Virus genome (UHGV): UHGV-1482696
DNA from: a virus
Direction: 5' to 3' (one strand)
Length of the DNA stretch: 36,682 nucleotides
Below, piece after piece: positions 8,548-26,121 of the stretch. Both the position numbers and the translations under genes were made by a program. The notes beneath the pieces were generated by a model. The model was not told the origin of the DNA and did no database searches. It saw only the letters and a list, made by a program, of their open reading frames with translations. Each line of letters opens with the position of its first letter. The first letter of the stretch is position 1.

Positions 8548-8552
8548 ACAGT

Positions 8553-8629: not shown

Positions 8630-9190
8630 ATGCCTGAGTTTTCCCCTGCATTCCTTCATTCGCTGAATTTCGTTATACGCCCTGATGTTGAAGGTGGCTA
8701 TGTTAATGATCCTGCCGACCGTGGCGGCGAAACGAAATACGGCATTTCTGACCGTCGCGACGGCGTTATTGATGGCAAAACCGATGTTAACGGTGACGGA
8801 AAACCTGATACCCGCATTAAGGATTTAACCCGCGAACAGGCAGCGCAGATCTACTGGCGTGATTACTGGCTGGCGGCAAAGTGTAACGAATGGCCTGATG
8901 GTGTTTCCTTATTCGTCTTTGATGCTGCCGTTCAGCACGGTGTTAAACGCGCGATTCAAATCCTCCAGGCGGCAGCAGGTGTTGATGATGATGGCATCGT
9001 TGGCAAAAACACCCGCGCAGCCGTTCTGCGTGCCGACACTGACTGGCTGCTGTTGCAGTGTTTCCTGCGTCGTTCCCGCTATTACGCAGGGATTATCAAA
9101 TCCAGTGCCTCGCAGGGGAAATATCTGAACGGCTGGTTTAACCGTCTGGATCTGCTCGCCAGCGCCTGCCGGGAGGTTCTGCATGGGTAA
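8630..9190 (+). CDS. GH108-family muramidase-like protein with C-terminal peptidoglycan-binding domain
   Basis: N-terminal motif VEGGYVNDPADRGGETKYGIS typical of glycoside hydrolase family 108 (catalytic Glu in EGGY); C-terminal region resembles PG_binding_3; RBS GGAGGG upstream. Confidence 0.7.
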   Translation: MPEFSPAFLHSLNFVIRPDVEGGYVNDPADRGGETKYGISDRRDGVIDGKTDVNGDGKPDTRIKDLTREQAAQIYWRDYWLAAKCNEWPDGVSLFVFDAAVQHGVKRAIQILQAAAGVDDDGIVGKNTRAAVLRADTDWLLLQCFLRRSRYYAGIIKSSASQGKYLNGWFNRLDLLASACREVLHG

Positions 9191-9401
9191 AGGGTGGGAT
9201 GCGTCCTTTCAGTTCGGCAGGCGCGAACGTTTACGACAGGAGGTATTACATCGGGAGGCCGGAGGCCCGCCACCAAAGCCAATGGATTACACAGGGCACG
9301 ATGGCACCCACGGAAGTTATTACATGAAAGGCTGGCAGTCAGTTGATATGCCGGAAATTCTTCATCATTGCCTGCTTTACAGGGAGAAACATTATGTCTG
9401 A
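9183..9401 (+). CDS. Middle-operon hypothetical protein
   Basis: 72-aa ORF exactly filling the gap, start overlapping upstream stop (ATGGGTAA) and stop overlapping downstream start (ATGTCTGA). Confidence 0.5.
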   Translation: MGKGWDASFQFGRRERLRQEVLHREAGGPPPKPMDYTGHDGTHGSYYMKGWQSVDMPEILHHCLLYREKHYV

Positions 9402-9756
9402 GCGTTCTGCTCGTCAGTGGCCTGATTTTTTATCGGTGGTGTTACTGGCGCTGTTATTGTGGATAAGTCTGTTTTGTGGCTGGCGCGCGCTGATGTTTTG
9501 CTGTGCCTCGGTTTTCAGTGTTGCTTTATGTGTTGCCGCTGATTGTCTGGATGCGCTGATAATGAGCTGCCGGGTGCCTGAACATTTTGCCCGGTTCGTC
9601 TGGCCTCTGACCTGGCTGGGGAGTCTGTCCGGGCTGGGATTAGCCGTGATGGCAACGTCTCAACTGAAAACGGGTCCTGAGCATGTCATCTGGGCGCTGG
9701 CCGGATTGCTGACGTTCTGGCTCTCCTTTCGTTTTCGCGCTCGTCTGTTCGGGTAA
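9394..9756 (+). CDS. Middle-operon integral membrane protein
   Basis: ORF 9343..9756 trimmed to ATG 9394 (AGGGAG upstream); 120 aa with three to four hydrophobic helices (VVLLALLLWISLFCGW, VFSVALCVAADCL, LTWLGSLSGLGLAVMA, VIWALAGLLTFWL). Confidence 0.6.
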   Translation: MSERSARQWPDFLSVVLLALLLWISLFCGWRALMFCCASVFSVALCVAADCLDALIMSCRVPEHFARFVWPLTWLGSLSGLGLAVMATSQLKTGPEHVIWALAGLLTFWLSFRFRARLFG

Positions 9757-9765
9757 AGGGGCACC

Positions 9766-9885
9766 ATGTACAGAAAATTCAGTGATGAATGTTTCGGGCC
9801 GTCCACGCTGATTAATGCGATAAAAGTGATTGCCCTTGTGGTTCTGATAACCATCAGTGCCGTGGTGTATCTTTCTGTCTGTTAA
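9766..9885 (+). CDS. Small single-pass membrane peptide (39 aa), not in ORF track
   Basis: ATG 9766 preceded by AAGGGG; MYRKFSDECFGPSTLINAIKVIALVVLITISAVVYLSVC has one clear hydrophobic helix; fills the gap between the membrane ORF and C. Confidence 0.4.
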   Translation: MYRKFSDECFGPSTLINAIKVIALVVLITISAVVYLSVC

Positions 9886-9897
9886 CCGGGGGAAAAT

Positions 9898-10320
9898 ATG
9901 CAGCATGATTTATTTGAACACGATCCGGCAATTCGCCAGTTAATCGGACATATTGATAACATCCCGGCCCCGGAACTGGAATCACGCTGGCCCCGTTCGG
10001 TGGTTGATCTGATTGATGTTCTGGAAAACGAACTGAAACGCCAGAACGTCAGCAATCCCCGTGAGCTTGCCCGTAAACAGGCCGTTGCCCTGTCCTGTTT
10101 TCTGGGCGGGCGGCAGTTTTACATCCCCTGCGGCGATACGATCCTGACCGCGTTACGCGACGATTTGCTTTACTGCCAGTTCAATGGTCGTAACATGGAA
10201 GAACTGCGTCGCCAGTACCGCCTGTCCCAGCCGCAGATCTACCAGATTATTGCCCGCCAGAGAAAGCTGCATACACGACGTCATCAGCCTGATCTGTTCT
10301 CACCTGAAAGCCAGAAATAA
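9898..10320 (+). CDS. C: C late-gene transcription activator
   Basis: 140 aa MQHDLFEHDPAIRQLIGHIDNIPAPELESRW... matches Mu C; Mor paralogue. Confidence 0.93.
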   Translation: MQHDLFEHDPAIRQLIGHIDNIPAPELESRWPRSVVDLIDVLENELKRQNVSNPRELARKQAVALSCFLGGRQFYIPCGDTILTALRDDLLYCQFNGRNMEELRRQYRLSQPQIYQIIARQRKLHTRRHQPDLFSPESQK

Positions 10321-10343
10321 CCGGCATCCTGCCGGTTATTTCC
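10317..10343 (+). terminator. Hairpin terminator after C
   Basis: TAACCGGCA-TCC-TGCCGGTTA perfect 9-bp stem followed by TTTCC. Confidence 0.5.
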
Positions 10344-10411
10344 TGTCACCATAATCCCGCACCTGCCATCTGATTTTTTAGACTGCCATCAGAGCATTTT
10401 TTCAGGGAAGC

Positions 10412-10930
10412 ATGATGGCGGGGATACCAAAAAAACTGAAAGCCGCACTGCTGGCGGTAACGATTGCCGGTGGCGGTGTGGGTGGTTATCAGGAAATGAC
10501 CCGTCAGTCTCTGATCCATCTGGAAAATATCGCTTATCTGCCTTACCGCGATATTGCCGGTGTGCTTACGGTCTGTGTGGGACATACCGGGCCGGATATC
10601 GAAATGCGCCGTTACAGCCATGCGGAGTGTATGGCTCTCCTCGACAGTGATTTAAAACCGGTTTATGCGGTAATCGATCGTCTTGTCAGGGTGCCGCTGA
10701 CGCCATATCAGAAAACGGCGCTGGCAACGTTTATTTTCAACACCGGTGTTACCGCATTCAGTAAATCAACGCTGCTGAAAAAACTCAATGCCGGTGATTA
10801 CGCCGGAGCGCGTGACCAGATGGCCCGCTGGGTGTTTGCCGCAGGCCATAAATGGAAAGGACTGATGAACCGTCGCGAAGTGGAAATGGCAATCTGGAAT
10901 ATCAGGGGGGCGGATGACCTTCGCCAGTAA
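10412..10930 (+). CDS. lys: SAR endolysin (T4-lysozyme-like muramidase with signal-arrest-release N-terminus)
   Basis: 172 aa; weakly hydrophobic Gly/Ala-rich N-terminal segment LKAALLAVTIAGGGVGGY then catalytic E...D...T triad (ENIAYLPYRDIAGVLTVCVGHTG); matches Mu Lys. Confidence 0.92.
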   Translation: MMAGIPKKLKAALLAVTIAGGGVGGYQEMTRQSLIHLENIAYLPYRDIAGVLTVCVGHTGPDIEMRRYSHAECMALLDSDLKPVYAVIDRLVRVPLTPYQKTALATFIFNTGVTAFSKSTLLKKLNAGDYAGARDQMARWVFAAGHKWKGLMNRREVEMAIWNIRGADDLRQ

Positions 10931-11300
10931 AAGTTTACTGCTGGCAGCCGTGTTTGCCGCCGTTCTGTCCGGGGTGTTGTGGCACAGGCTGGACAGCACC
11001 CGCCACGATAACCAGACGCTGCGCCGTGAATTACAGACGGAGCAACAGGCCCGCAACACGGCTGAATGGTTGTTACACGGTCAGGAACAGACGATGCAGG
11101 TATTTTCTGCTATCCGTGCCGCAAATCGTGCCGCACGGCTGGCAGATGAGACAGAACATCATGATGCAAAAGAAAAAATTACAACAGCCATTACCGGTGA
11201 CAATTGCAGCACTCGTCCTGTGCCTGCCGTTGCTGCTGACAGGTTGCGGGAACTCGAAAAACGCACCCGTGCCATCGGTGGTGATCCTGCCCGAAACTGA
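10914..11300 (+). CDS. i-spanin (Rz-like inner-membrane spanin subunit)
   Basis: N-terminal TM helix LLLAAVFAAVLSGVLW followed by charged coiled-coil region (RRELQTEQQARNTAEW); directly after endolysin. Confidence 0.75.
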   Translation: MTFASKSLLLAAVFAAVLSGVLWHRLDSTRHDNQTLRRELQTEQQARNTAEWLLHGQEQTMQVFSAIRAANRAARLADETEHHDAKEKITTAITGDNCSTRPVPAVAADRLRELEKRTRAIGGDPARN

Positions 11301-11502
11301 TGCAGAACTGACGGAAGCAACGCCCGTTCCGCCCATGCCACAGCCCCTGACGTGGGGAGCATCCCTTCTCTGGAATGCTGACCTGTTGATGGCGCTCGGG
11401 CAGTGCAACCGCGACAAGGCATCAGTCCGGGAACAGGAGACCCGAAGGAAAGAAATTTATGAACGAAGACCAGAACCGGGCGGTGGCGCTGCTGCTCGCT
11501 GA
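11161..11502 (+). CDS. o-spanin (Rz1-like outer-membrane lipoprotein), overlapping i-spanin in another frame
   Basis: MMQKKKLQQPLPVTIAALVLCLPLLLTGC: lipoprotein signal peptide with lipobox LLTGC; Pro-rich mature region; 3-prime end uncertain. Confidence 0.6.
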   Translation: MMQKKKLQQPLPVTIAALVLCLPLLLTGCGNSKNAPVPSVVILPETDAELTEATPVPPMPQPLTWGASLLWNADLLMALGQCNRDKASVREQETRRKEIYERRPEPGGGAAAR

Positions 11503-11653
11503 ACTCTGGCAGGGGGATACCCGTGATATTCCCCGCCCGGCGGCGTATGACCCGCCTGTATTGTGTGCCGGTTGCGGTCGTGAGCTGCGGCCTGATGTGC
11601 TGAGACAGCAGCCGATGGCGAACTACTGCCACTGGTGCCGTGGAGCAGAATAA
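11459..11653 (+). CDS. TraR/DksA-type C4 zinc-finger protein
   Basis: 64 aa with C-x2-C-x17-C-x2-C (CAGCGRELRPDVLRQQPMANYCHWC). Confidence 0.65.
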   Translation: MNEDQNRAVALLLAELWQGDTRDIPRPAAYDPPVLCAGCGRELRPDVLRQQPMANYCHWCRGAE

Positions 11654-11952
11654 TGGATTTGATTTCAGTTTTAGCGTTATGGCCTTACCTGTTGCCTGTT
11701 GTGGCCGGTGGGGCCGTCTGGGCAATGCGTCGTAGTTTTGCCAGCACTGAGCGTGTGGAGCGTCTTGAAAACCGGATGACCGAAATGGAAACCCGCTACG
11801 CCAGCATCCCTGGCACAGAAGATGTACACGAAATGCGCCTGCGAATTGCGGAGCTGTCCGGCGATATCCGGGTGCTGTCCCAGCGGGTGCAGTCATTTTC
11901 CCATCAACTGGAGCTGCTGCTTGAAAACGCAGTAAACCGGAGTAATTCATGA
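11653..11952 (+). CDS. Small membrane protein, Mu gp25-like (lysis-associated)
   Basis: ATG overlaps upstream stop (TAATG); N-terminal TM helix LISVLALWPYLLPVVAGGAVWA then coiled coil; position matches Mu gp25. Confidence 0.65.
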   Translation: MDLISVLALWPYLLPVVAGGAVWAMRRSFASTERVERLENRMTEMETRYASIPGTEDVHEMRLRIAELSGDIRVLSQRVQSFSHQLELLLENAVNRSNS

Positions 11953-12239
11953 TTAACGATATTCTGACCGAAGACCGTCGTCTGGTCATCCTGCGTTCCC
12001 TGATGGACTGCAATAACGAAGCAAACGAGTCCATCCTTCAGGACTGTCTGGATGCATACGGACACAACGTTTCCCGCGATGTGGTTCGCGGCCAGATTGA
12101 CTGGCTGGCAGAGCAGCAACTGGTCACCGTGGAAAACCTGCGCGGCTTTTATGTCGTAACGCTGACCTCCCGAGGTCAGGATGTGGCGGAAGGCCGCGCC
12201 CGCGTTGCCGGTGTCAAGCGTCCGCGTCCCCGTGCATGA
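11949..12239 (+). CDS. Hypothetical protein (Mu gp26-like)
   Basis: 96-aa ORF, RBS GGAG 8 nt upstream, start overlaps upstream stop. Confidence 0.6.
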   Translation: MINDILTEDRRLVILRSLMDCNNEANESILQDCLDAYGHNVSRDVVRGQIDWLAEQQLVTVENLRGFYVVTLTSRGQDVAEGRARVAGVKRPRPRA

Positions 12240-12250
12240 CAGGAGGCGTG

Positions 12251-12826
12251 ATGGACAGGAAAACACGGGGCCGGGCTTCAAAAGTGGATTTACTGCCGGA
12301 AAACGTACGTAAAACGCTGCATGAAATGCTGCGTGATAAGGCGATCCCACAGGCCCGCATTCTGGAAGAAATTAACGCACTGATTGAAGACGCTGGCCTG
12401 CCGGATGAGATGAAACTCTCCCGTTCCGGTCTGAACCGTTACGCGACGAACGTCGAGCAGGTAGGCCATAACCTGCGACAGATGCGTGAAATGACGTCAG
12501 CACTGACCGCAGAACTTGGCGACAAGCCAATGGGAGAAACCACAAAGCTGATTCTGGAAATGGCCCGTAGCCAGCTTTTTAAGGCCATGATGCGGCAAAT
12601 CGAAAACCCGGAATCTGACGTGGATATTGACCTGCTGAAAAATGCCATGCTGGCGGCACAGCGTCTGGAATCCACGGCAATGTCCAGCCACCGGCGCGAG
12701 AAAGAAATCCGCCAGGCATTCGCAGAAGAAGCGGCAAACGCCGTCAGTGAAGAACTGCGCGGGCAGGATGGCATCAGCGAAGAGCTGGAGCAGCGTATCC
12801 GTGATGTGCTGCTGGGTAAGGCATGA
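12251..12826 (+). CDS. Probable terminase small subunit (Mu gp27-like)
   Basis: AGGAGG at 12241-12246 before ATG 12251; immediately upstream of large terminase. Confidence 0.65.
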   Translation: MDRKTRGRASKVDLLPENVRKTLHEMLRDKAIPQARILEEINALIEDAGLPDEMKLSRSGLNRYATNVEQVGHNLRQMREMTSALTAELGDKPMGETTKLILEMARSQLFKAMMRQIENPESDVDIDLLKNAMLAAQRLESTAMSSHRREKEIRQAFAEEAANAVSEELRGQDGISEELEQRIRDVLLGKA

Positions 12827-12833
12827 GAGGGTT

Positions 12834-14489
12834 ATGAACACCAGAGAAAACAACCTTAAAGCCCTTCATGCCCCCCGAAAAATCGACCTGCGTAAGGAAG
12901 CCGAACTGCTGGGCGTGAATATCGTGACCGATATCGGGGAAGCACAGCCCCGCAATGAACCGGTTTTTCTGGGCTATCAGCGCCGCTGGTTTGAGGATGA
13001 AAGCCAGATTTGCATTGCTGAAAAATCCCGTCGTACCGGTCTGACATGGGCCGAAGCGGGCCGCAATGTCATGACGGCAGCAAAGCCGCGCCGCCGTGGC
13101 GGTCGCAACGTCTTTTATGTGGGTTCCCGTCAGGAAATGGCGCTGGAATATATCGCCGCCTGTGCCCTGTTTGCCCGCGCCTTTAACCAGCTGGCAAAGG
13201 CTGATGTCTGGGAGCAGACCTTCTGGGACAGTGACAAAAAAGAAGAAATCCTCACTTATATGATCCGTTTCCCTAACAGCGGATTTAAGGTGCAGGCGCT
13301 GTCAAGCCGTCCGTCTAACCTGCGTGGTTTGCAGGGGGACGTGGTGATTGATGAGGCGGCATTTCATGAAGCCCTGGACGAACTCCTGAAAGCGGCCTTT
13401 GCTCTCACCATGTGGGGTGCCCGCGTGCGGATCATATCGACACATAACGGCGTCGATAACCTGTTTAACCAGTACATTCAGGATGCGCGCGAGGGGCGCA
13501 AGGATTACAGCGTTCACCGCATCACGCTGGATGATGCCATCGCTGACGGGTTGTACCGACGTATCTGTTACGTCACGAATCAGCCGTGGTCGCCGGAAGC
13601 GGAAAAAGCCTGGCGTGATGGCCTGTACCGGAATGCGCCGAATAAAGAAAGTGCCGACGAGGAATACGGCTGCATTCCTAAAAAATCCGGGGGCGCTTAT
13701 CTGTCACGCGTGCTGATTGAAGCCGCCATGACGCCAGCGCGGGATATCCCGATTCTGCGTTTTGAAGCCCCGGACGATTTTGAATCGCTGACACCACAAA
13801 TGCGCCACGGCATCGTTCAGGACTGGTGTGAACAGGAGCTGCTCCCGTTGCTCGATGCGCTGTCGCCGCTCAATAAACACGTACTGGGCGAAGACTTTGC
13901 ACGCCGTGGCGACCTGACGGTGTTTGTGCCGCTTGCCATCACGCCTGACTTACGCAAACACGAATGTTTCCGCGTGGAGCTGCGTAATGTGACCTATGAC
14001 CAGCAGCGACAAATCCTTTTATTCATTCTGTCCCGTTTGCCCCGTTTTACCGGCGCTGCATTTGATGCCACCGGTAACGGCGGTTATCTGGCAGAAGCCG
14101 CCCGTCTGATTTATGGCCCGGAGATGATCGACTGTGTGAATCTGACCGCATCCTGGTATCAGGAGTGGATGCCAAAACTGAAAGGCGAGTTTGAAGCGCA
14201 GAACATCACGATTGCCCGGCACCAGACCACACTTGATGACCTGCTCCACATCAGGGTGGACAAAGGTATTCCGCAGATTGATAAGGGGCGCACAAAAGAT
14301 GAAGGCGGTAAAGGCCGACGACATGGCGACTTTGCCGTGGCGCTCTGTATGGCTGTCAGGGCGTCTTATATGAATGGTTTTGTTATCGACGAGGACAGCA
14401 TACAGGCGCTGCCACCACGCCACCGTGGTGATGATGTTGATAACGATGATTTTGATGATTATCACCAGTTTGAACGAGGGGGCTGGTAA
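12834..14489 (+). CDS. Terminase large subunit (Mu gp28-like)
   Basis: ORF 12642..14489 trimmed to ATG 12834 (GAGAGG upstream, avoids overlap with the preceding gene); 551 aa with conserved nuclease-domain acidic motifs (VIDEA.., RGDLTVF..). Confidence 0.85.
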   Translation: MNTRENNLKALHAPRKIDLRKEAELLGVNIVTDIGEAQPRNEPVFLGYQRRWFEDESQICIAEKSRRTGLTWAEAGRNVMTAAKPRRRGGRNVFYVGSRQEMALEYIAACALFARAFNQLAKADVWEQTFWDSDKKEEILTYMIRFPNSGFKVQALSSRPSNLRGLQGDVVIDEAAFHEALDELLKAAFALTMWGARVRIISTHNGVDNLFNQYIQDAREGRKDYSVHRITLDDAIADGLYRRICYVTNQPWSPEAEKAWRDGLYRNAPNKESADEEYGCIPKKSGGAYLSRVLIEAAMTPARDIPILRFEAPDDFESLTPQMRHGIVQDWCEQELLPLLDALSPLNKHVLGEDFARRGDLTVFVPLAITPDLRKHECFRVELRNVTYDQQRQILLFILSRLPRFTGAAFDATGNGGYLAEAARLIYGPEMIDCVNLTASWYQEWMPKLKGEFEAQNITIARHQTTLDDLLHIRVDKGIPQIDKGRTKDEGGKGRRHGDFAVALCMAVRASYMNGFVIDEDSIQALPPRHRGDDVDNDDFDDYHQFERGGW

Positions 14490-16027
14490 TGGGCCGTATT
14501 CTGGATATTTCCGGGCAGCCGTTTGATTTTGACGATGAAATGCAGACCCGCAGTGATGAGCTGGCAATGGTCATGAAGCGCACGCAGGAGCATCCTTCCA
14601 GTGGTGTGACGCCGAACCGGGCCGCGCAGATGCTGCGTGATGCCGAACGCGGTGATCTGACAGCACAGGCTGACCTGGCCTTTGATATGGAAGAAAAGGA
14701 CACCCACCTTTTTTCCGAACTGAGCAAACGCCGCCTTGCCATTCAGGCGCTGGAATGGCGCATCGCTCCGGCACGTGATGCCAGCGCACAGGAGAAAAAA
14801 GACGCAGACATGCTGAATGAATATCTGCATGATGCGGCGTGGTTTGAAGATGCCCTGTTTGATGCCGGTGATGCCATTCTCAAGGGCTATTCCATGCAGG
14901 AGATTGAATGGGGCTGGCTGGGGAAAATGCGCGTGCCGGTGGCGCTGCATCATCGCGATCCGGCGCTGTTCTGCGCGAACCCCGACAATCTGAACGAATT
15001 ACGCCTGCGTGATGCGTCTTGGCACGGGCTGGAGCTGCAACCGTTCGGCTGGTTTATGCACCGGGCCAAATCCCGCACCGGGTATGTCGGCACCAATGGC
15101 CTTGTGCGCACGCTTATCTGGCCTTTTATTTTTAAAAACTATTCCGTGCGTGATTTTGCAGAGTTTCTGGAAATTTACGGACTCCCCATGCGCGTCGGTA
15201 AATATCCGACCGGCTCAACGAATCGCGAGAAAGCCACGCTGATGCAGGCCGTGATGGATATCGGGCGACGTGCCGGTGGCATTATTCCGATGGGGATGAC
15301 GCTGGATTTTCAGAGCGCCGCAGATGGTCAGTCAGACCCTTTTATGGCGATGATTGGCTGGGCAGAAAAAGCGATTTCAAAAGCCATTCTGGGCGGCACC
15401 CTGACCACAGAGGCTGGCGATAAAGGTGCGCGGTCGCTGGGTGAAGTGCATGATGAGGTTCGCCGGGAAATCCGTAACGCGGATGTGGGCCAGCTTGCCC
15501 GCAGTATTAACCGTGACCTGATTTATCCCCTGCTGGCACTGAACAGTGACAGCACCATTGATATTAACCGCCTGCCTGGCATTGTATTTGATACCAGTGA
15601 AGCGGGTGATATTACGGCACTGTCTGACGCCATTCCGAAACTGGCGGCGGGAATGCGTATTCCGGTCTCCTGGATACAGGAAAAACTCCATATTCCGCAG
15701 CCGGTCGGTGATGAAGCCGTGTTTACTGCTCAACCGGTCGTCATGGATAACGGTCCGCAGAAAGAGGCTGCATTATCCGCTGAAGATATCCCGCAGGAGG
15801 ATGATATCGACCGGATGGGCGTCTCACCGGAAGACTGGCAGCGTTCGGTTGATCCCCTGCTGAAACCCGTCATTTTTTCTGTGCTGAAAGATGGCCCGGA
15901 AGCCGCCATGAACAAAGCCGCTTCATTATATCCGCAGATGGATGATGCAGAACTTATCGACATGCTGACCCGTGCCATTTTTGTTGCCGATATATGGGGG
16001 CGTCTGGATGCCGCAGCAGACCATTGA
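14489..16027 (+). CDS. H: Portal protein
   Basis: 512 aa following terminase; start overlaps terminase stop (TAATG). Confidence 0.85.
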   Translation: MGRILDISGQPFDFDDEMQTRSDELAMVMKRTQEHPSSGVTPNRAAQMLRDAERGDLTAQADLAFDMEEKDTHLFSELSKRRLAIQALEWRIAPARDASAQEKKDADMLNEYLHDAAWFEDALFDAGDAILKGYSMQEIEWGWLGKMRVPVALHHRDPALFCANPDNLNELRLRDASWHGLELQPFGWFMHRAKSRTGYVGTNGLVRTLIWPFIFKNYSVRDFAEFLEIYGLPMRVGKYPTGSTNREKATLMQAVMDIGRRAGGIIPMGMTLDFQSAADGQSDPFMAMIGWAEKAISKAILGGTLTTEAGDKGARSLGEVHDEVRREIRNADVGQLARSINRDLIYPLLALNSDSTIDINRLPGIVFDTSEAGDITALSDAIPKLAAGMRIPVSWIQEKLHIPQPVGDEAVFTAQPVVMDNGPQKEAALSAEDIPQEDDIDRMGVSPEDWQRSVDPLLKPVIFSVLKDGPEAAMNKAASLYPQMDDAELIDMLTRAIFVADIWGRLDAAADH

Positions 16028-16892
16028 TCTGGCGTATGCCGCACGCCTCCCGCCAAAGGAGGCTGTCGCGTATTTCCGCGCCAAAGGCTACAACATCACC
16101 TGGAACTGGTACGAACAACTGGCAGACGCGCACGCCCGCGCCTTTACCGTTGCCAAAGCCACCCGGATGGATGTACTGACCACTATCCGTGAGGAAGTGG
16201 AGCGGGCTGTCAGTGAAGGCATCACCCGTGAGGAATTTACCCGCACACTGGCCCCCCGGCTGCAAAAACTCGGATGGTGGGGAAAACAAATCATCGTGGA
16301 TGCAGAGGGAAACGCGAAGGAAATCGAACTGGGCAGTCCGCGTCGTCTGGCAACCATTTATAACGTCAATACCCGTACGGCGTACGGGGCGGGACGTTAT
16401 GCACAGATGATGAATACCGCCGATTTGTACCCGTACTGGCAGTACGTTGCCGTTATGGATGGCAGAACACGCCCGGAACATGCGCGGCTGCACAATATGG
16501 TTTTCCGGTATGACGACATTTTCTGGCAGACGCATTACCCGCCCAATGGCTGGAACTGCCGCTGTCGCGTCCGGGCGCTGTCTGCGGCCCGCATGAAAGA
16601 ACTGGGGCTACAGGTCAGTTATGGTGCGTCATTCATGAATACCCGCGAAGTGGATGCCGGCACGGATGAAAGCACCGGAGAGATTTTCCGCACATCGTCA
16701 ACCACGTTTGACAACGGTCGGGTAAAAATGACGCCGGATGTGGGCTGGTCATATAACCCCGGTTCGGCGGCATTTGGTACGGATCAGGCACTGATTCGAA
16801 AACTGGTGGAAATTCGCGACGCGCAGTTGCGTGAGCAGGTTGTTCAGACGCTGAATAACAGCCGGGAGCGTTGCTTTTTCCCTCTGGCTTAA
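16008..16892 (+). CDS. F: Head morphogenesis protein F, N-terminal portion (ORF ends prematurely at a T5 run)
   Basis: ATG 16008 with GGGGG upstream; product has Mu-F/SPP1-gp7-like region; ends TAA 16890-16892 directly after TTTTT (16875-16879) while the +1 frame continues open to 17322. Confidence 0.7.
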   Translation: MPQQTIDLAYAARLPPKEAVAYFRAKGYNITWNWYEQLADAHARAFTVAKATRMDVLTTIREEVERAVSEGITREEFTRTLAPRLQKLGWWGKQIIVDAEGNAKEIELGSPRRLATIYNVNTRTAYGAGRYAQMMNTADLYPYWQYVAVMDGRTRPEHARLHNMVFRYDDIFWQTHYPPNGWNCRCRVRALSAARMKELGLQVSYGASFMNTREVDAGTDESTGEIFRTSSTTFDNGRVKMTPDVGWSYNPGSAAFGTDQALIRKLVEIRDAQLREQVVQTLNNSRERCFFPLA

Positions 16893-16944
16893 ACGTCTGG
16901 CGAAATCACGCCGGGCCGGACATGAGGTCCGTGCGCTGGGGTTT

Positions 16945-17322
16945 ATGACGGGATCCGTGGCGGAGGCCGTATATCAGCGCACCGGGAATATGCCAGCCCG
17001 TCTGCTTGTAATGAACAGGAAAAGTCTGGCGACCACTGCTGATGCCGCCCTGAAACCGGAAGATTTACAGCGTCTGCCGTCTCTGATGGCAGAACCACAG
17101 GCGGTATTGTGGGACAGAAAAAATCACCAGCTGCTGTACGTTGTGGCAACCCGTGACGGCACGGCCCAAATTGTGGTCAGAACATCACAGACAGTCGGCA
17201 GGCAGAATGACCGGGCGGATGTGCTGGTCAGTATCAGCCGCGTATCTGCACAGTCGCTTGAAGCCGCGATTGCTGACGGGATGATTGACGTACTGGAGGG
17301 GCATGTGGAGGTGAATAAGTGA
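16945..17322 (+). pseudogene. F: Probable C-terminal portion of F displaced into the +1 frame (no independent RBS)
   Basis: Frame is open from 16855 through 17322; ATG at 16945 lacks a convincing Shine-Dalgarno; ends at the G start (GTGA overlap), leaving no intergenic space as expected for one contiguous F gene. Confidence 0.45.
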
Positions 17323-17789
17323 GTCTTGATATGAACGTTGCCGTGGATGTGCGACGTATTCAGCTTGCACTGGATGAACTGGGAACCGTTACACGTGACC
17401 GCGCCATTCCCCGTGTGATGGCTGCGGCGCTTCTGTCATCCACGGAACAGGCATTTGAACGGCAGGCAGACCCGGATACAGGGAAAGGCTGGGAAGCGTG
17501 GAGCGATTCGTGGCTGGCATGGCGTCAGGATCATGGTTTTGTTCCGGGCAGTATCCTTACCCTGCATGGCGATCTGGCACGCAGCATTACCACCGATTAT
17601 GGACAGGATTATGCCCTGATTGGTTCGCCAAAAATTTATGCTGCCATTCATCAGTGGGGCGGTACACCCGATATGGCACCCCGCCCGGCAGGCGTTCCTG
17701 CGCGTCCTTATATGGGGCTGGATAAGACCGGGGAACAGGAAATTTTTGATGCCATCAGAAAACGCGTCAGCGCCGCTCTGAGGCAATAA
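17319..17789 (+). CDS. G: Virion morphogenesis protein G
   Basis: 156 aa; GTG start 17319 with GGAGG 8 nt upstream; matches Mu G size and position. Confidence 0.8.
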   Translation: MSLDMNVAVDVRRIQLALDELGTVTRDRAIPRVMAAALLSSTEQAFERQADPDTGKGWEAWSDSWLAWRQDHGFVPGSILTLHGDLARSITTDYGQDYALIGSPKIYAAIHQWGGTPDMAPRPAGVPARPYMGLDKTGEQEIFDAIRKRVSAALRQ

Positions 17790-17985
17790 ACGGAATCAGA
17801 CGTGAAATCAGCTGCACAGATTTTTTAAAACGCGCCACGGGATTTTTAAACCGGTATTTAACGGTGTATGAATCCCGTTTTATCTTCCTTCCACTTTCTT
17901 TCTCCAGTACTCAAATAGCATAACCCCAGATTTTCCCGCACCTCCCGCAAACTGACTGCTCACAAACCATGATGAGCAGCAGGAC
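17790..17985 (+). promoter_or_regulatory. G-I intergenic region: expected location of the central strong gyrase site and the late promoter PI
   Basis: Only sizeable non-coding stretch in the head region, near the midpoint of the prophage; contains a 7-bp inverted repeat CGGGATT (17838-17844) / AATCCCG (17871-17877). Confidence 0.5.
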
Positions 17986-19071
17986 ATGAAAAAACACGCG
18001 ATTGGCATTGCCGCACTGAGTGCGCTGTCCATTGACGATGACGGCTGGTGCCAGCTATTGCCTGCCGGTCATTTCAGTGCCCGTGATGGTCGTCCGTTTG
18101 ATGTGACAGGCGGTCAGGGGTGGTTCATCGACGGTGAGATTGCCGGGCGTCTGGTTGAAGGCGTTCGCGCGCTCAACCAGGACGTGCTGATTGATTACGA
18201 GCATAACCAGCTACGTAAGGACAAAGGATTACCCCCGGAACAACTCGTCGCGGCTGGCTGGTTTAACGCCGATGAAATGCAGTGGCGTGAAGGTGAAGGA
18301 TTATTTATCCACCCACGCTGGACGGCGGCGGCACAGCAGCGCATCGATGACGGCGAATTTGGTTATCTCTCTGCAGTTTTTCCGTATGACACCGCCACCG
18401 GTGCGGTGCTGCAAATCCGCCTTGCTGCGCTGACCAATGACCCCGGTGCCACCGGCATGAAAAAGCTGACCGCACTGGCGGCAGACCTTCCCGACATCCT
18501 TCAACAGGAGAACAAACCCATGAATGAAACGCTGCGCAAGCTGCTTGCGCGTCTTGGGGTGACGGTCCCCGAAAATGCAGACATCACCGATGAACAGGCA
18601 ACAGCGGCACTGACCGCGCTGGACACGCTGGAAAGTAACGCCGGGAAAGTGGCGGCGTTGTCTGCCGAACTGGAAAAGGCACAGAAAGCCGCCGTTGACC
18701 TGACGAAATACGTCCCGGTGGAAAGCTACAACGCCCTGCGTGATGAACTGGCACAGGCGACTGCACAAAGCGCCACAGCCAGCCTGAGCGCCGTTCTGGA
18801 CAAGGCGGAACAGGAAGGCCGCATTTTCAAAAGCGAACGTGCCTATCTGGAACAGCTTGGCGGCCAGATTGGCGTGGCGGCACTGTCGGCACAGCTTGAG
18901 AAAAAACAGCCCATCGCTGCGTTATCTGCCATGCAGACCACCACAGCGAAAATCCCGTCGCAGGAAAAAACGGCTGTGGCGGTGCTGTCTGCTGATGAAC
19001 AGGCAGCAGTGAAGGCGCTCGGCATTACAGAGGCTGAGTATCTGAAAATGAAACAGGAACAAGAAAAATGA
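17986..19071 (+). CDS. I: Head protease/scaffold protein I
   Basis: 361 aa MKKHAIGIAALSALSIDDDGWCQLLPAGHF...; Ala/Gln/Glu-rich coiled-coil C-terminal half. Confidence 0.88.
   Translation: MKKHAIGIAALSALSIDDDGWCQLLPAGHFSARDGRPFDVTGGQGWFIDGEIAGRLVEGVRALNQDVLIDYEHNQLRKDKGLPPEQLVAAGWFNADEMQWREGEGLFIHPRWTAAAQQRIDDGEFGYLSAVFPYDTATGAVLQIRLAALTNDPGATGMKKLTALAADLPDILQQENKPMNETLRKLLARLGVTVPENADITDEQATAALTALDTLESNAGKVAALSAELEKAQKAAVDLTKYVPVESYNALRDELAQATAQSATASLSAVLDKAEQEGRIFKSERAYLEQLGGQIGVAALSAQLEKKQPIAALSAMQTTTAKIPSQEKTAVAVLSADEQAAVKALGITEAEYLKMKQEQEK
18520..19071 (+). CDS. Z: Possible nested scaffold protein Z from in-frame internal start
   Basis: In-frame ATG 18520 (MNETLRKLLARLG...) preceded by AGGAG at 18506-18510; Mu expresses scaffold Z from within I. 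Confidence 0.4.
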   Translation: MNETLRKLLARLGVTVPENADITDEQATAALTALDTLESNAGKVAALSAELEKAQKAAVDLTKYVPVESYNALRDELAQATAQSATASLSAVLDKAEQEGRIFKSERAYLEQLGGQIGVAALSAQLEKKQPIAALSAMQTTTAKIPSQEKTAVAVLSADEQAAVKALGITEAEYLKMKQEQEK

Positions 19072-19985
19072 TTGTCACCCCGGCATCCATTAAAGCCCTG
19101 ATGACCTCCTGGCGTAAGGATTTTCAGGGCGGTCTTGAAGACGCCCCGTCGCAGTACAGCAAAATTGCAATGGTGGTGAACTCCTCCTCCCGCAGTAATA
19201 CCTATGGCTGGCTGGGTAAATTCCCTGCCATGAAAGAATGGGTGGGTAAGCGAACCATTCAGCAAATGGCAGCGCATGGCTACTCCATCGCCAATAAAAC
19301 GTTTGAAGGCACCGTGGGCGTAAGCCGTGATGACTTCGAGGATGACAATCTGGGCATTTATGCGCCGATGTTTCAGGAGATGGGCCGTTCTGCGGCAGTT
19401 CAGCCGGATGAGCTGATTTTTAAACTTCTGAAAGATGGCTTTACCCAGCCGTGCTATGACGGTCAGAACTTCTTCGACAAGGAGCATCCGGTATATCCGA
19501 ATGTGGACGGCACGGGCAGCGCGGTTAATACCTCCAACATCGTTGAGCAGGACAGCTTCAGCGGTCTGCCGTTCTATCTGCTGGACTGCTCCCGCGCAGT
19601 CAAACCGCTGATTTTCCAGGAGCGCCGCAAACCGGAACTGGTCGCACGTACCCGTATCGATGACGACCACGTTTTTATGGATAACGAGTTCCTGTTTGGT
19701 GCCAGCGCCCGCCGTGCTGCCGGTTACGGCTTCTGGCAGATGGCTGTCGCGGTAAAAGGTGATCTGACGCTGGATAACCTCTGGAAGGGCTGGCAACTGA
19801 TGCGTGCGTTTGAAGGTGATGGCGGTAAGAAGCTGGGCCTGAAGCCGACACATATCGTTGTACCGGTCGGGCTGGAAAAAGCCGCAGAGCAACTGCTTAA
19901 CCGTGAACTGTTCGCGGATGGCAATACCACCGTCTCCAACGAGATGAAGGGCAAGCTGCAACTGGTTGTCGCTGACTACCTGTAA
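19068..19985 (+). CDS. T: Major capsid protein T
   Basis: 305 aa following protease/scaffold; start overlaps I stop (ATGA). Confidence 0.88.
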   Translation: MIVTPASIKALMTSWRKDFQGGLEDAPSQYSKIAMVVNSSSRSNTYGWLGKFPAMKEWVGKRTIQQMAAHGYSIANKTFEGTVGVSRDDFEDDNLGIYAPMFQEMGRSAAVQPDELIFKLLKDGFTQPCYDGQNFFDKEHPVYPNVDGTGSAVNTSNIVEQDSFSGLPFYLLDCSRAVKPLIFQERRKPELVARTRIDDDHVFMDNEFLFGASARRAAGYGFWQMAVAVKGDLTLDNLWKGWQLMRAFEGDGGKKLGLKPTHIVVPVGLEKAAEQLLNRELFADGNTTVSNEMKGKLQLVVADYL

Positions 19986-19993
19986 CCGTCATT

Positions 19994-20017
19994 AAAAGGC
20001 GGTTCAGACCGCCTTTT
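19994..20017 (+). terminator. Hairpin terminator after major capsid gene
   Basis: AAAAGGCGGT-TCAG-ACCGCCTTTT perfect 10-bp stem. Confidence 0.7.
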
Positions 20018-20051
20018 AACCTGATTTAAAGGAAAAGGAGGAGCATGTGTT

Positions 20052-20462
20052 ATGTCAGGCACTTCGCTTAATTCACAACGGCTGGACACTTCTCGCATCA
20101 CTTGCACGGCGATTATTAAATGCCTTCGTCCGGTCTACCGCCGCGCCGGAATCGCCTTTACGCGTGGCGAAAACACCGTGGAAGTCACCGAAGAACAACT
20201 GGCGATCATTCGTGCCGACAGCGTGCTGTCTGTGGTATCTGCATCGTCAGCAGAAACGCTCGCTGAGGCTGGGGGGCTGGACGTTCTGGGTGTGGGCGAT
20301 CTGAATACCCGTATCTGTGCGACCGTTGCCGGTCTGGATAAGGCAAACCCGGAGCACTTTACCGCAGGGGGGGAACCCAAAGTGAAAGCCGTCAGTGCGG
20401 CGCTGGGGGAACCGGTGAGCAGTGCGCAAATCAAAGCGGCGCTGGCTGAGGCGGATGCATGA
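20052..20462 (+). CDS. Head-region hypothetical protein (Mu gp35-like)
   Basis: 136-aa ORF downstream of capsid gene. Confidence 0.6.
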   Translation: MSGTSLNSQRLDTSRITCTAIIKCLRPVYRRAGIAFTRGENTVEVTEEQLAIIRADSVLSVVSASSAETLAEAGGLDVLGVGDLNTRICATVAGLDKANPEHFTAGGEPKVKAVSAALGEPVSSAQIKAALAEADA

Positions 20463-20884
20463 ATTACGCGACGGTAAATGACCTGTGCGCCCGCTATACA
20501 CGTACGCGGCTGGATATTCTCACCCGCCCTAAAACAGCGGACGGTCAGCCGGATGATGCCGTGGCAGAACAGGCACTGGCAGATGCTTCGGCCTTTATTG
20601 ATGGCTATCTCGCCGCGCGCTTTGTTCTGCCGCTTACCGTCGTCCCCTCACTGCTGAAACGGCAGTGTTGCGTGGTGGCCTGGTTTTATCTGAATGAATC
20701 ACAACCCACCGAGCAGATCACCGCTGCCTACAGGGACACAGTGCACTGGCTGGAACAGGTGCGCGATGGAAAAACAGATCCCGGCGTGGAAAGCAGGACG
20801 GCAGCCTCGCCGGATGGTGAAAACCTTGTGCAGGTGCAGTCTGACGCGCCGGTCTTCTCACGAAAACAGAAGGGGTTTATCTGA
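20459..20884 (+). CDS. J: Head completion / neck protein J
   Basis: 141 aa; overlaps upstream stop; synteny. Confidence 0.75.
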   Translation: MNYATVNDLCARYTRTRLDILTRPKTADGQPDDAVAEQALADASAFIDGYLAARFVLPLTVVPSLLKRQCCVVAWFYLNESQPTEQITAAYRDTVHWLEQVRDGKTDPGVESRTAASPDGENLVQVQSDAPVFSRKQKGFI

Positions 20885-21432
20885 TGCTGGAAGAAACCGA
20901 AGCCGCACTACTGGCGCGCGTTCGTGAGTTGTTTGGGGCAACCCTGCGGCAGGTGGAACCCCTTACCGGCACATGGACTAACGAGGATGTGCACCGTCTC
21001 TTTCTGGCCCCGCCATCGGTATTTCTGGCATGGATGGGCTGTGGTGAGGGGCGTACGCGTCGGGAAGTTGAAAGTCGCTGGGCATTTTTTGTCGTGGCGG
21101 AGTTGCTGAACGGGGAACCGGTAAACCGGCCCGGTATTTATCAGATTGTGGAGCGACTGATTGCCGGTGTTAACGGTCAGACGTTTGGCCCGACCACCGG
21201 GATGAGACTGACGCAGGTCAGAAATCTTTGTGACGACAACCGTATCAATGCCGGTGTGGTGCTTTACGGCGTTCTGTTCAGTGGCACTACTCCGCTGCCG
21301 TCCGTGGTGGACATGGATTCGCTGGATGATTACGAGCGTCACTGGCAGACCTGGAAATTCCCGGACGAAACCCCGGAATTTGCCGCACATATCAATGTGA
21401 ATCAGGAAAAGGATCATGATGCTGAAAATTAA
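20884..21432 (+). CDS. K: Head-tail joining protein K
   Basis: 182 aa; ATG overlaps J stop (TGATG). Confidence 0.75.
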   Translation: MLEETEAALLARVRELFGATLRQVEPLTGTWTNEDVHRLFLAPPSVFLAWMGCGEGRTRREVESRWAFFVVAELLNGEPVNRPGIYQIVERLIAGVNGQTFGPTTGMRLTQVRNLCDDNRINAGVVLYGVLFSGTTPLPSVVDMDSLDDYERHWQTWKFPDETPEFAAHINVNQEKDHDAEN

Positions 21433-21622
21433 ACCCGCAGCGGGAAAAGCCATCCGTGACCCGCTCACGATGAAATTACTGGCGTCTGAGGGGGAAGAAA
21501 AGCCCCGTAACAGTTTCTGGATACGTCGCCTTGCAGCCGGTGATGTGGTTGAAGTCGGGAGCACCGAAAACACGGCGGATGATACCGACGCTGCGCCGAA
21601 AAAACGGAGTAAATCGAAATGA
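21416..21622 (+). CDS. Small tail-region protein (Mu gp38-like)
   Basis: 68-aa ORF, AAGGA RBS, bridging K and sheath gene. Confidence 0.55.
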
Positions 21623-23106
21623 GCGATATTTCATTTAACGCGATCCCGTCAGATGTTCGCGTTCCTCTGACGTATATCGAATTTGATAACAGTAATGCCG
21701 TCAGCGGAACACCGGCACCCCGTCAGCGCGTGCTGATGTTCGGGCAAAGCGGAAGTAAAGCCAGTGCGGCACCAAACGTGCCTGTCCGTATCCGTTCCGG
21801 CTCACAGGCCAGTGCGGCGTTTGGTCAGGGTTCCATGCTGGCACTGATGGCAGATGCATTCCTGAACGCTAACCGCGTGGCGGAGCTGTGGTGTATTCCG
21901 CAGGGGAACGGCACCGGTAATGCGGCTGTCGGTGAAATTTCACTGTCAGGAACGGCAGGCGAAAACGGCTCGCTTGTGACTTACATTGCCGGTCAGCGAC
22001 TGGCGGTATCTGTCGCAGCAGGTGCAACGGGAGCGGCGCTGGCTGACCTGCTGGTTGCCCGAATCAAAGGCCAGCCTGATTTACCGGTGACGGCAGAAGT
22101 TCGCGCAGACAGCGGGGATGATGACACCCATGCAGATGTGGTTCTGAGTGCAAAATTTACGGGTGCATTATCTGCCGTGGACGTGCGCTGGAACTATTAC
22201 GCGGGTGAAACGACCCCTTACGGGATTATCACGGCATTCAAAGCCGCCTCCGGGAAAAATGGCAACCCGGATATCAGCGCAAGTATCGCGGGAATGGGCG
22301 ATCTGCAATACAAATATATTGTGATGCCCTATACCGATGAACCGAACCTGAATTTGTTACGCACTGAATTGCAGGAACGCTGGGGACCGGTCAATCAGGC
22401 TGATGGCTTTGCTGTGACAGTGCTGTCCGGCACGTATGGGGACATTTCCACGTTTGGTGTCAGCCGTAATGACCATCTGATTTCCTGTATGGGGATTGCC
22501 GGTGCACCGGAACCGTCATATCTGTACGCCGCCACACTGTGTGCCGTTGCCAGCCAGGCGCTTTCCATCGACCCGGCGCGTCCACTCCAGACGCTGACGT
22601 TGCCCGGAAGAATGCCGCCTGCGGTGGGGGATCGTTTCACCTGGTCAGAACGTAATGCGCTGCTGTTTGACGGCATCTCCACGTTTAACGTGAATGATGG
22701 TGGTGAAATGCAGATTGAACGCATGATCACGATGTACCGCACAAACAAGTACGGTGACAGCGATCCGTCTTATCTGAACGTGAATACCATCGCCACGCTG
22801 AGTTATCTGCGTTATTCGCTGCGAACCCGCATCACGCAGAAATTCCCGAACTACAAGCTGGCAAGTGATGGCACCCGCTTTGCCACCGGTCAGGCCGTGG
22901 TGACGCCATCCGTGATCAAAACGGAGCTGCTGGCACTGTTTGAAGAATGGGAAAACGCCGGACTGGTCGAGGATTTCGACACGTTCAAAGAGGAGCTGTA
23001 TGTGGCACGTAACAAGGACGACAAAGACCGTCTTGATGTGCTGTGCGGCCCGAATCTGATTAACCAGTTCCGCATTTTCGCGGCACAAGTTCAGTTCATT
23101 CTGTAA
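21619..23106 (+). CDS. L: Contractile tail sheath protein L
   Basis: 495 aa, size and position of Mu L. Confidence 0.88.
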
Positions 23107-23115
23107 GGAGCATTT

Positions 23116-23472
23116 ATGGCTGGAAATCAGCGTCAGGGGGTGGCGTTCATCCGTGTCAATGGCATGGAGCTTGAAACGATGGAAGGTGCCTCCTTCACAC
23201 CTTCCGGCATCACCCGTGAAGAAGTGACCGGCTCGCGGGTTTATGGCTGGAAAGGTAAACCACGTGCCGCAAAGCTGGAATGCAAAATTCCGGGCGGTGG
23301 TGATATCGGTCTGGATGAAATCATCGGCTGGGAAAACATCACGGCAGAGTTTCAGGCAGACACCGGTGAAACCTGGATGATGGCGAATGCCTGGCAGGCA
23401 GATGAACCGAAAAACGACGGCGGCGAAATTTCGCTGGTACTGATGGCAAAACAAAGCAAACGCATTGCATAA
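23116..23472 (+). CDS. M: Tail tube protein M
   Basis: 118 aa directly after sheath, RBS AAGGAG. Confidence 0.85.
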   Translation: MAGNQRQGVAFIRVNGMELETMEGASFTPSGITREEVTGSRVYGWKGKPRAAKLECKIPGGGDIGLDEIIGWENITAEFQADTGETWMMANAWQADEPKNDGGEISLVLMAKQSKRIA

Positions 23473-23481
23473 GGGGAAACA

Positions 23482-23916
23482 ATGGACGAAATGAATTTAG
23501 GTCCTGAAGCACAGGAACTGCATGACAGCATTGTGGCAGAAATTCAGTCCGGAGTGCTGAAACTGAAAGACGGCCTGCCGTTCGGCACCGGTGACGAGAC
23601 TGAAATGCAGTATGACGTGACACTGCGTGAACTGACCGCAGGCGATATGATTGATGCACAGGCGGCTGCTGAAAAGCTTGTAATGAGCAAGGAAGGTCCG
23701 GTGCTGGTCAGTTCCCCGTCCCGGATGGGACTGGAAATGCTGCGCCGACAGATTGCCAGCGTGGGCTGCATCAAAGGCCCGTTGTCGATGGCGCTGATTC
23801 GTAAGCTGTCTGTCGATGACTTCCAGCGTCTGTCGCTGGCCACAGAAATGTACGACATGGCTGTGGCGGCATCGCTGACACAAGAACGGGGGCGAGTGGC
23901 TGCGGTGCCGGAATGA
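23482..23916 (+). CDS. Tail assembly chaperone (Mu gp41-like)
   Basis: 144-aa acidic ORF between tube and tape-measure genes. Confidence 0.65.
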   Translation: MDEMNLGPEAQELHDSIVAEIQSGVLKLKDGLPFGTGDETEMQYDVTLRELTAGDMIDAQAAAEKLVMSKEGPVLVSSPSRMGLEMLRRQIASVGCIKGPLSMALIRKLSVDDFQRLSLATEMYDMAVAASLTQERGRVAAVPE

Positions 23917-24060
23917 TATTGAGAAAGCGGCGACAGCGATTGGCGTTATTCTGAAAAGTGGCCCGGAATGGGCCTTGTCTCTCCCGCTGTCCCGCTTTTT
24001 CCGGCACTGCCAGCAGGCTAAAACCCTCTCTCAATATCACCGTTAAATCAGGAAATCTCT

Positions 24061-26121
24061 ATGACCGGGAAACGCTTAAAGGCGTCTGTCATTATTGATC
24101 TTAATGGCAATCTTTCCCGGCGTTCCCGCCAGTATTCGAACCAGATAAACGCCCTGTCCCGTAGCGGGCAAAGTTCCCTTCGTGCCCTGCGTATGGAGGT
24201 TGTGCGCGTTTCTGGTGCCATTGACAGAATGGGTTCACTGTCAACCCGTACATTCCGAATGCTGTCAGCCGGGGCGCTGGGTATCGCTGGTGTGGGTTAC
24301 ACCGCCAATAAACTGTTTATTGGTGCAGCCGCCCAGCGTGAGCAGCAAATTATCGCCATGAACTCGCTGTATCACGGCGATAAGGTCAGAGCGCAGGCCA
24401 TGATGGCCTGGGCAAAGCAGAACGCGAAGGACACCACGTGGGGGCTGAGTGGTGTTCTTGATGAGATCCGTTCGTCGAAAGGCTTCGGCATGACGGATGA
24501 ACAGACGAAACAGTTCATCACCATGTTGCAGGATCAGGGGGCCATGCACGGCTGGGATTTACCCACTGCACAGGGTGCCTCACTGCAACTGAAACAGATG
24601 TTTGCCCGCCAGCAAATCACAGCGGCGGATGCCAACCTGCTGACCGGTTACGGTATCAACGTTTATCAGGCGCTGGCGGATGCAACGGGAACGGACGTTA
24701 AAAAAATCCGTGATCTGGGTACAAAGGGCAAGCTGGGCATGAAATCCATTCTGACGGTATTCAGAACGCTGTCAGAACAGTCAAAAGGTGCACAGGCCAG
24801 TGCGATGAACTCCTGGGACGGGATGTTCGCCCAGATGGAAGCCAACCTGCTTGAATTTCGCATAAAGGTGGCAAACAGCGGCCCCTTTGAAGAAATCAAG
24901 AACGAGATGCGCCGGGTGCTTAACTGGCACGACATGGCGGATAAATCCGGGGAACTTGACGCCCTGGCAGAAAACATTGGTCAGAAATTTCTGACCACGT
25001 TCAGAACGGTAAAAATCGCGGCGCAGGAATTATGGCGCTGGCTGAAACCGGGTAAAGATGCGCTGGCATGGGTTGACCAGAATATTGTCAGCCTGAAAAA
25101 ACTGGCTGCTGTTCTGGTGTCTGTCTGGCTTGCCAATAAAGCCCTGAGAGCAGGCTGGGCCGTGGCAAAACCCTCATGGCAGGTTGCCAGTTATCCGTTT
25201 AAAACCGGGCGTCGTATGTGGCGCTGGATGCGAAACCGCAAACGTGGGCAGGCAGGTCTGCCGGTCCCGGATGCCATGACGTCTGAGACGCTGTTGCAGG
25301 GTATCGGCATTCAGCGTGTGTTTGTCATCAACTGGCCCCGTGGATTTGGTGGCTACGGGAGTGGCGGACGGAGCGGCGGAAGAATGGCACCGCTGTTACC
25401 CCGCCAGCCGTTATTGCTGTCCGGGCCACAGCCGCTGGCATTACCTGCACCACGCCCTGTACTGGCATTACCCCCACCCGGCGTACCGGTAACAGCACGG
25501 CCTGCACCATTACCTTTACCCGGTAAATCCGGTCTTCTGAGCAGGCTTGCAGGCAGTGCTGCCGGGCAACTGGTTACGGGAACGGTCGGAAAGCTGGCTG
25601 ATGCCGGGCGTGCTGTTGGCGGGTGGTTTTCCGGTATCGGAAACAAACTTGCAGGCAGTGCGATCGGTCGGGTTGTGACAAAAGGGGCCGGGGCGCTGGG
25701 CTGGATGGGAAAAGGTGCCGGTCGTGCGTTGTCACGTCTGGGTGGCCCGGTAATGGGGGCACTCCAGCTTGCCCCCGTCCTGATGGATGAGCAGGCGTCA
25801 ACCCATGAAAAAGCAGGCGCAATTGGCAGTACAGCCGGTGCATGGCTCGGCGGTGCCGTTGGCAGCCTTGCCGGACCGCTGGGTACGGTTGCCGGTGCCA
25901 CGCTGGGCAGTGTCGCCGGGGAGTATCTGGGCGGTTTTGTAACCGACCTGTATCAGAAATGGACGGCCCCGGATAAGGAACCGCAGGAACAAAAAGTGAA
26001 TGCGGAAGCCTCGCTGCGCGTCGAACTTGGCGAGGGGTTACGTCTGGCCAGTTCCCGTGTCACCGAGGATGGTATGGGGCTGAATATTTATGCGGGCGAT
26101 AACTACATTACAGGCTGGTAA
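24061..26121 (+). CDS. Y: Tail tape measure protein Y
   Basis: 686 aa; Gly/Ala/Pro-rich low-complexity C-terminal half with glycine-zipper-like repeats; position after chaperone. Confidence 0.88.
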   Translation: MTGKRLKASVIIDLNGNLSRRSRQYSNQINALSRSGQSSLRALRMEVVRVSGAIDRMGSLSTRTFRMLSAGALGIAGVGYTANKLFIGAAAQREQQIIAMNSLYHGDKVRAQAMMAWAKQNAKDTTWGLSGVLDEIRSSKGFGMTDEQTKQFITMLQDQGAMHGWDLPTAQGASLQLKQMFARQQITAADANLLTGYGINVYQALADATGTDVKKIRDLGTKGKLGMKSILTVFRTLSEQSKGAQASAMNSWDGMFAQMEANLLEFRIKVANSGPFEEIKNEMRRVLNWHDMADKSGELDALAENIGQKFLTTFRTVKIAAQELWRWLKPGKDALAWVDQNIVSLKKLAAVLVSVWLANKALRAGWAVAKPSWQVASYPFKTGRRMWRWMRNRKRGQAGLPVPDAMTSETLLQGIGIQRVFVINWPRGFGGYGSGGRSGGRMAPLLPRQPLLLSGPQPLALPAPRPVLALPPPGVPVTARPAPLPLPGKSGLLSRLAGSAAGQLVTGTVGKLADAGRAVGGWFSGIGNKLAGSAIGRVVTKGAGALGWMGKGAGRALSRLGGPVMGALQLAPVLMDEQASTHEKAGAIGSTAGAWLGGAVGSLAGPLGTVAGATLGSVAGEYLGGFVTDLYQKWTAPDKEPQEQKVNAEASLRVELGEGLRLASSRVTEDGMGLNIYAGDNYITGW

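Follow-up and report, generated by a model that had tools for sequence, protein, structure and literature searches.

A 5-bp deletion frameshifts the head gene F of an otherwise intact Mu-like prophage

Introduction

Gene F of bacteriophage Mu is essential, was defined by amber (conditional-lethal) mutants and is needed in head morphogenesis; its product is reportedly a minor head protein. In both Mu (gp30, AAF01108.1, 'minor head protein') and D108 (gene 30), F is a single 1320-nt gene encoding 439 aa, which overlaps the portal gene H by 20 nt and the downstream gene G through a GTGA tetranucleotide. This arrangement agrees with the preliminary description of the DNA studied here, which had assumed an F protein of roughly 440 aa and no further gene between F and G.

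More generally, MuF domains belong to the phage head and frequently have cargo domains fused to them (Iyer et al. 2017, PMC5512222; Jamet et al. 2017, PMC5576092). The C-terminus of Mu F itself, termed 'MuF-C', has the phage BECR RNase fold in a catalytically inactive form (Iyer et al. 2017, PMC5512222). In many phages the C-terminal extensions of MuF proteins are modular cargo, and solo PBECR domains also exist (PMC5512222). The short MuF protein gp7 of phage SPP1, which lacks a C-terminal extension, occurs in each capsid in 1-2 copies (PMC5576092) and is dispensable for assembly, with ~25% of gp7-less virions remaining infectious (PMC6316719).

Here we examine the F locus of a 36,682-nt stretch of viral DNA (UHGV-1482696, hereafter the window), a contig from a short-read metagenome assembly (JGI 3300045988 Ga0495776_127086), in which F appeared to be interrupted by a change of reading frame, and we trace the interruption to the loss of five bases.

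Results

The window holds a complete Mu-like prophage at positions 72..36629 (+ strand), collinear in blastn comparisons with phage Mu 1-36717 (window 72 corresponds to Mu 1 and window 36629 to Mu 36717) and bounded by Mu-type TG...CA ends, which read TGTATTGATTCAC... at 72 and ...CGCCGCTTCA at 36629. The ends are flanked by two copies of a 5-bp target-site duplication, GCTGC, neither of which is assigned a strand: the left one (67..71) lies in the host gene fsr, and the junction at the right one (36630..36634) also occurs in a second contig, IMGVR_UViG_3300045988_125570. When the empty site is rebuilt from the two flanks and one GCTGC copy, it matches fsr of many E. coli genomes with 100% identity across 119 nt, and we therefore regard the window as prophage DNA from a lysogen rather than virion DNA. 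Together with the Mu gene order, in which 46 of the 53 queried Mu proteins are matched by tblastn, the terminal dinucleotides and the 5-bp duplication identify a Mu-like transposable prophage (Muvirus) in E. coli fsr, otherwise intact and, in our reading, recently integrated. Across the Mu proteome, F alone is split between frames in these tblastn searches; every other matched protein is recovered as a single unbroken stretch.

The contig stops just 71 nt and 53 nt past the two prophage ends, and the second contig is 1 nt longer on the right; such breaks near the junctions suggest a branch in the assembly graph, for instance an empty fsr site that is also present in the same sample.

The F locus occupies the same place between H and G as in Mu and D108 and retains the same overlaps with both neighbors. 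The portal gene H (gp29; 14489..16027, + strand) is intact, as Mu residues 1-512 align in one stretch with 99.0% identity, and its end overlaps the start of F, whose ATG at 16008 is that used in Mu. Gene G (gp31; 17319..17789, + strand) is likewise intact, starts with GTG at 17319 and encodes a protein 100% identical to Mu G. Between them, F is shortened to 16008..16892 (+ strand), with 294 codons of which 288 are native and the last six read CFFPLA, followed by TAA at 16890-16892; a run of five T residues (T5) stands shortly upstream, at 16875..16879. The remainder of the gene lies in the +1 frame, which is open from 16855 to the TGA at 17320-17322 (+ strand), covers Mu F residues 290-439 including the MuF-C region, and ends in the GTGA overlap with G. 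Accordingly, a Mu F query divides into residues 1-288 in frame 3 and residues 290-439 in frame 1, with protein identities to Mu F of 99.3% and 94%, respectively. The stop position, the T5 run, the extent of the open +1 frame and its junction with G had all been read correctly in the preliminary description.

The first ATG, GTG or TTG codon of the +1 frame is the ATG at 16945, from which the only conventional distal ORF (16945..17322, + strand) would encode 125 aa with a weak MuF_C match. Its best anti-Shine-Dalgarno pairing reaches -5.4 kcal/mol, a value that 21% of the window's ATGs attain, and the weak SD-like GGGG ends almost at the ATG, leaving very short spacing. The earlier judgment that this start has no convincing ribosome-binding site thus holds, and since its SD score is at chance level the distal codons are left in the +1 frame with no credible start of their own; independent expression of the distal ORF is unsupported. 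Existing gene calls for this ORF differ, at 125 aa in ENA and 103 aa in JGI.

In Mu and D108, F reads through this site in one frame with no stop, which establishes that the interruption in the window is real. Its cause, however, is not the T5 homopolymer at which the preliminary description had placed the frame change. Alignments to Mu, D108 and the prophage of E. coli 2020C08-115 show that five bases, TCAGC, are absent between 16870 and 16871, four bases 5' of the T-run; owing to a flanking T the placement is ambiguous by one base, so that the missing bases can equally be written CAGCT, one base rightward. The intact form of the site reads GAGCGTCAGCTTGC. Natively, ...CGT CAG CTT GCT TTT TCC CTC TGG CTT AAA... 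encodes R Q L A F S L W L K, whereas the window reads ...CGT TGC TTT TTC CCT CTG GCT TAA, or R C F F P L A followed by the stop. A count of the T-run, as had been proposed, gives T5 in the window, in Mu and D108 and in the two closest E. coli prophages (elppa5 and 2020C08-115), so this is the ancestral length, an extra T is ruled out, and a homopolymer sequencing error is excluded as the cause. The suggestion that removal of one T would reunite the two pieces is right as far as the frame goes (a net change of -6), but it would not recreate wild-type F, in which RQLAFSLW stands in place of the resulting RCFSLW.

Re-insertion of TCAGC, in turn, yields a gene identical at 1320/1320 positions to an intact F of 439 aa (WP_186170203.1) that is found in E. 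coli elppa5 and 2020C08-115, two blood isolates from Taiwan. The window is thus nucleotide-identical to that gene over all 1315 shared bases and differs from it, as from Mu and D108, in that five missing nucleotides after codon 288 distribute F over two frames. The prophages of these two isolates, with F intact, are inserted elsewhere (between fucP and fucI; in ygfK) rather than in fsr. The same length difference extends to wider searches: 5426 complete E. coli genomes yielded 44 full-length F matches, all of 1320 nt, and each of the 13 full-length phage matches exceeds the window query by 5 nt. The distal piece carries no further change relative to the intact relatives, which indicates that the deletion is very recent. 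Flanking microhomology amounts to 1 nt (the T) and no 5-nt direct repeat is present, so a slipped-strand origin of the TCAGC loss is disfavored.

The identical 294-aa product and deletion junction recur in a second, 33105-nt contig (ENA ERZ1314608 NODE_927, the same as IMGVR_UViG_3300045988_125570), which is also the sole other carrier of the junction (in IMG/VR and ENA): the junction was not found in GTDB representative genomes, in JGI metagenome contigs or in the 5426 complete E. coli genomes. This sibling contig shares the Mu-end/GCTGC/fsr junction, and from 25556 to 36682 of the window the two sequences agree at 100% identity; a 12-bp indel and a single SNP, both in the tape-measure gene (Mu gp42/Y), nevertheless set them apart. 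At window 25363-25364 the window lacks 12 bp in frame, CGGTCGTCGCGG, between GCGG direct repeats, which removes four residues from the tape-measure protein and looks, from the repeats, like a slipped-strand event; the 12 bp are retained in Mu, in E. coli 2020C08-115 and in the sibling contig. Conversely, the SNP, at window 25380, is private to the sibling contig, the window agreeing there with 2020C08-115 and Mu. Each contig therefore combines a private change of its own with the common F deletion, and a deletion common to two slightly diverged contigs of one lysogen lineage is an inherited one.

It is against this background that a sequencing or assembly artefact, with the true DNA carrying an intact F, has to be weighed. 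The deletion rests on two assemblies, evidently of one lysogen lineage, the sibling contig has a k-mer coverage of only ~3x, the window itself comes from short-read metagenome assembly, and the absence of the junction from the genome collections searched would also fit an error. On the other hand, TCAGC is neither a homopolymer nor a simple repeat and the neighboring T5 is unchanged; the deletion is the same in two contigs that differ in length and elsewhere in sequence, which argues against the assembly error that the preliminary description had offered as an option; and no further frameshifted gene is present across 36.6 kb. Furthermore, over 22.6 kb (9315-31904) the window differs from the prophage in the finished 2020C08-115 genome by 2 SNPs, the repeat-mediated 12-bp in-frame deletion and the 5-bp F deletion, and by nothing else. 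We consequently hold an artefact to be very improbable.

Consensus errors in the assembly are probably what underlies the annotation of the elppa5 prophage, the closest relative in a complete genome, where PGAP calls the portal, tape-measure and baseplate J genes 'frameshifted' although all three are intact in the window and in 2020C08-115; frameshift calls in Mu-like prophages should accordingly be checked one by one. Separately, a 142-aa C-terminal F fragment annotated as 'partial' (MEL3523160.1) lies within an E. coli contig of 2.03 Mb, so that F may have been disrupted independently, at a comparable position, in another isolate.

At the protein level, the 294-aa product keeps the whole Phage_Mu_F/SPP1 gp7 domain (residues 59-188), with scores of 112.2 bits for PF04233 (cut-off 29.6) and 56.3 bits for TIGR01641 (cut-off 39.65), and its gene directly follows the portal gene in the head module, as befits the MuF/SPP1 gp7 family. 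The two pieces match consecutive parts of phrog_220, the N-terminal one at profile positions 889-1141 and the distal one at 1151-1266. With PF18819 (MuF_C), neither the distal piece (24.4 bits) nor intact Mu F (21 bits) reaches the cut-off of 27.6, and the MuF-C homology of the distal piece becomes clear only through alignment with Mu-like relatives. A search for a relative of Mu F in the PDB returned none.

To place the break, we aligned five F proteins, from the E. coli relative, Mu, a Mu-like element in an Stx phage, Shewanella MuM16-1 and Pasteurella Pmp9, which range from 98 to 44% identity and are all encoded by single ORFs of 439-445 aa. In all five, the position of the break falls inside an invariant motif, LNNSxER-QLAF-xW (N283, N284, S285 and R288 before it, F292 and W295 after it), rather than within the variable linker, which starts a few residues further on; F292 and W295 are missing from both pieces. 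What the window lacks is thus the single ORF of 439-445 aa that joins core, motif and MuF-C in an intact Mu-type F (gp30). Among the intact relatives, the distal 150 codons have a dN/dS of ~0.18-0.22, calculated from small counts, which indicates that they are under purifying selection. Nor did we find naturally split MuF genes: in all 17 phage records that contain the C-terminal region, it lies inside the F gene.

Discussion

Taken together, these results favor the interpretation, to which we assign a probability of about 0.8, that a heritable 5-bp TCAGC deletion between 16870 and 16871 frameshifts F in an otherwise intact Mu-like prophage and abolishes or strongly reduces F function. They bear out the suggestion of a genuine frameshift mutation, which is the best of the readings proposed at the outset. 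Translation from the ATG at 16008 yields the 288 native residues plus CFFPLA and terminates at 16890, leaving the other 150 codons in the +1 frame with no credible independent start. Such a product should retain the MuF core, the part represented in the same family by the portal-binding SPP1 gp7, and would lose both the F292/W295 part of the motif and the entire C-terminal MuF-C (inactive PBECR-like) domain. From the sequence, the frameshift is predicted to uncouple the MuF core from its conserved MuF-C module and to remove conserved residues at their junction. F function would then be gone or much lowered, and an induced lysogen would be expected to release few or no infectious particles even though the transposition, lysis and other morphogenesis genes are intact. 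Because Mu F mutants are conditional-lethal, this prophage has most likely lost, wholly or in large part, the ability to produce infectious particles.

The resemblance of the shortened protein to SPP1 gp7 and other short MuF proteins (PF04233/TIGR01641) raises the question of whether the split could be tolerated, with the 294-aa core sufficing and MuF-C either dispensable or made from ATG 16945 by reinitiation, so that the phage stays viable. The PF04233 domain is complete, the 288 native residues approximate the size of proteins such as gp7, which is not needed for assembly, and the break lies near the junction at which MuF polymorphic toxins (Jamet 2017) and MuF-C/PBECR proteins (Iyer 2017) are modular, in keeping with the modular cargo and solo PBECR domains known from other phages (PMC5512222). 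The dispensability of gp7 and the inactive, accessory nature of MuF-C imply that a shortened F could keep part of its role, and the lineage has lasted long enough for one further private change in each contig. Yet gp7 is native and complete, whereas the window F is cut in an invariant Mu-type motif, not in the variable linker, and ends in six aberrant residues. Moreover, in MuF cargo systems the covalent fusion is thought to be the route into the capsid, and it is precisely this fusion that is destroyed here. F is one ORF in every Mu-like relative examined, including the 44 E. coli and 13 phage copies, and purifying selection acts on its distal part in relatives that keep the gene intact; ATG 16945, 52 nt beyond the stop, has its chance-level and badly spaced SD; and persistence of a prophage in its host lineage requires no phage viability. 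On balance, we regard a tolerated split as unlikely.

Translational slippage, which the preliminary description had called less likely and for which the T5 run is the sole support, would require a +1 slip on TTT_TTC, helped by an upstream GGGAG, that produces a little near-full-length F, perhaps enough for a protein needed at low copy. On T5, tRNA-Phe can indeed re-pair perfectly one base forward, the native frame is reached ahead of the stop, and MuF proteins are low-copy, as the 1-2 gp7 molecules per SPP1 capsid illustrate. However, the A-site offers neither a stop nor a rare codon, and the SD-like GGGAG is spaced by 6 nt, as compared with the 3 nt of prfB. The site is also unselected for slippage, as all relatives read across it in one frame and the 44 E. 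coli, 13 phage and 3 distant copies provide no conserved two-frame arrangement of the kind that marks a recoding site. The product, with RCFSLW for RQLAFSLW, would in addition remain two residues short in the invariant motif. Rescue by slippage thus appears extremely improbable. Considering any route to function as a whole, be it the gp7-like core alone, low-level +1 slippage or a separately made MuF-C, a functional shortened or split F seems to us unlikely; if true, it would mean that Mu-type particles can form without the conserved C-terminal MuF-C/PBECR module of F and that the window carries a natural separation-of-function allele of a protein with a poorly defined role.

Under the favored interpretation of a loss-of-function frameshift, the significance of the lesion is mostly limited to annotation. 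The ORFs called by ENA and JGI (294 aa plus 125 or 103 aa) are better annotated as a single F gene disrupted by a 5-bp deletion, and the contig, though complete end to end, should not be tallied among fully functional phage genomes. The F frameshift is ordinary prophage decay, a known route of structural gene inactivation, caught at a clean first step in which one private lesion affects a head gene that looks essential and the remaining 36.5 kb, still intact, hardly differ from prophages with an undamaged F. Should the lysogen be isolated, the allele would provide a ready-made C-terminal truncation for probing the role of MuF-C in Mu F.

Outside F, the prophage shows the following variation relative to its relatives. 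The immunity and early regions (window 414-914 and about 4570-9180) are mosaic, with a repressor 45% identical to Mu c and a Ner protein 50% identical to Mu Ner, and the segments 6436-6990 and 8595-9182 have no match to Mu or 2020C08-115 and are common to the elppa5 prophage. Mu genes 6, 7, 12, 13, 14 and 54 have no counterpart in the window. The variable part of the tail-fibre gene S shares only ~79% identity with Mu S, and the invertible G segment (window 31871-34949) is in the orientation of the Mu reference (G+), opposite to that in the 2020C08-115 prophage.
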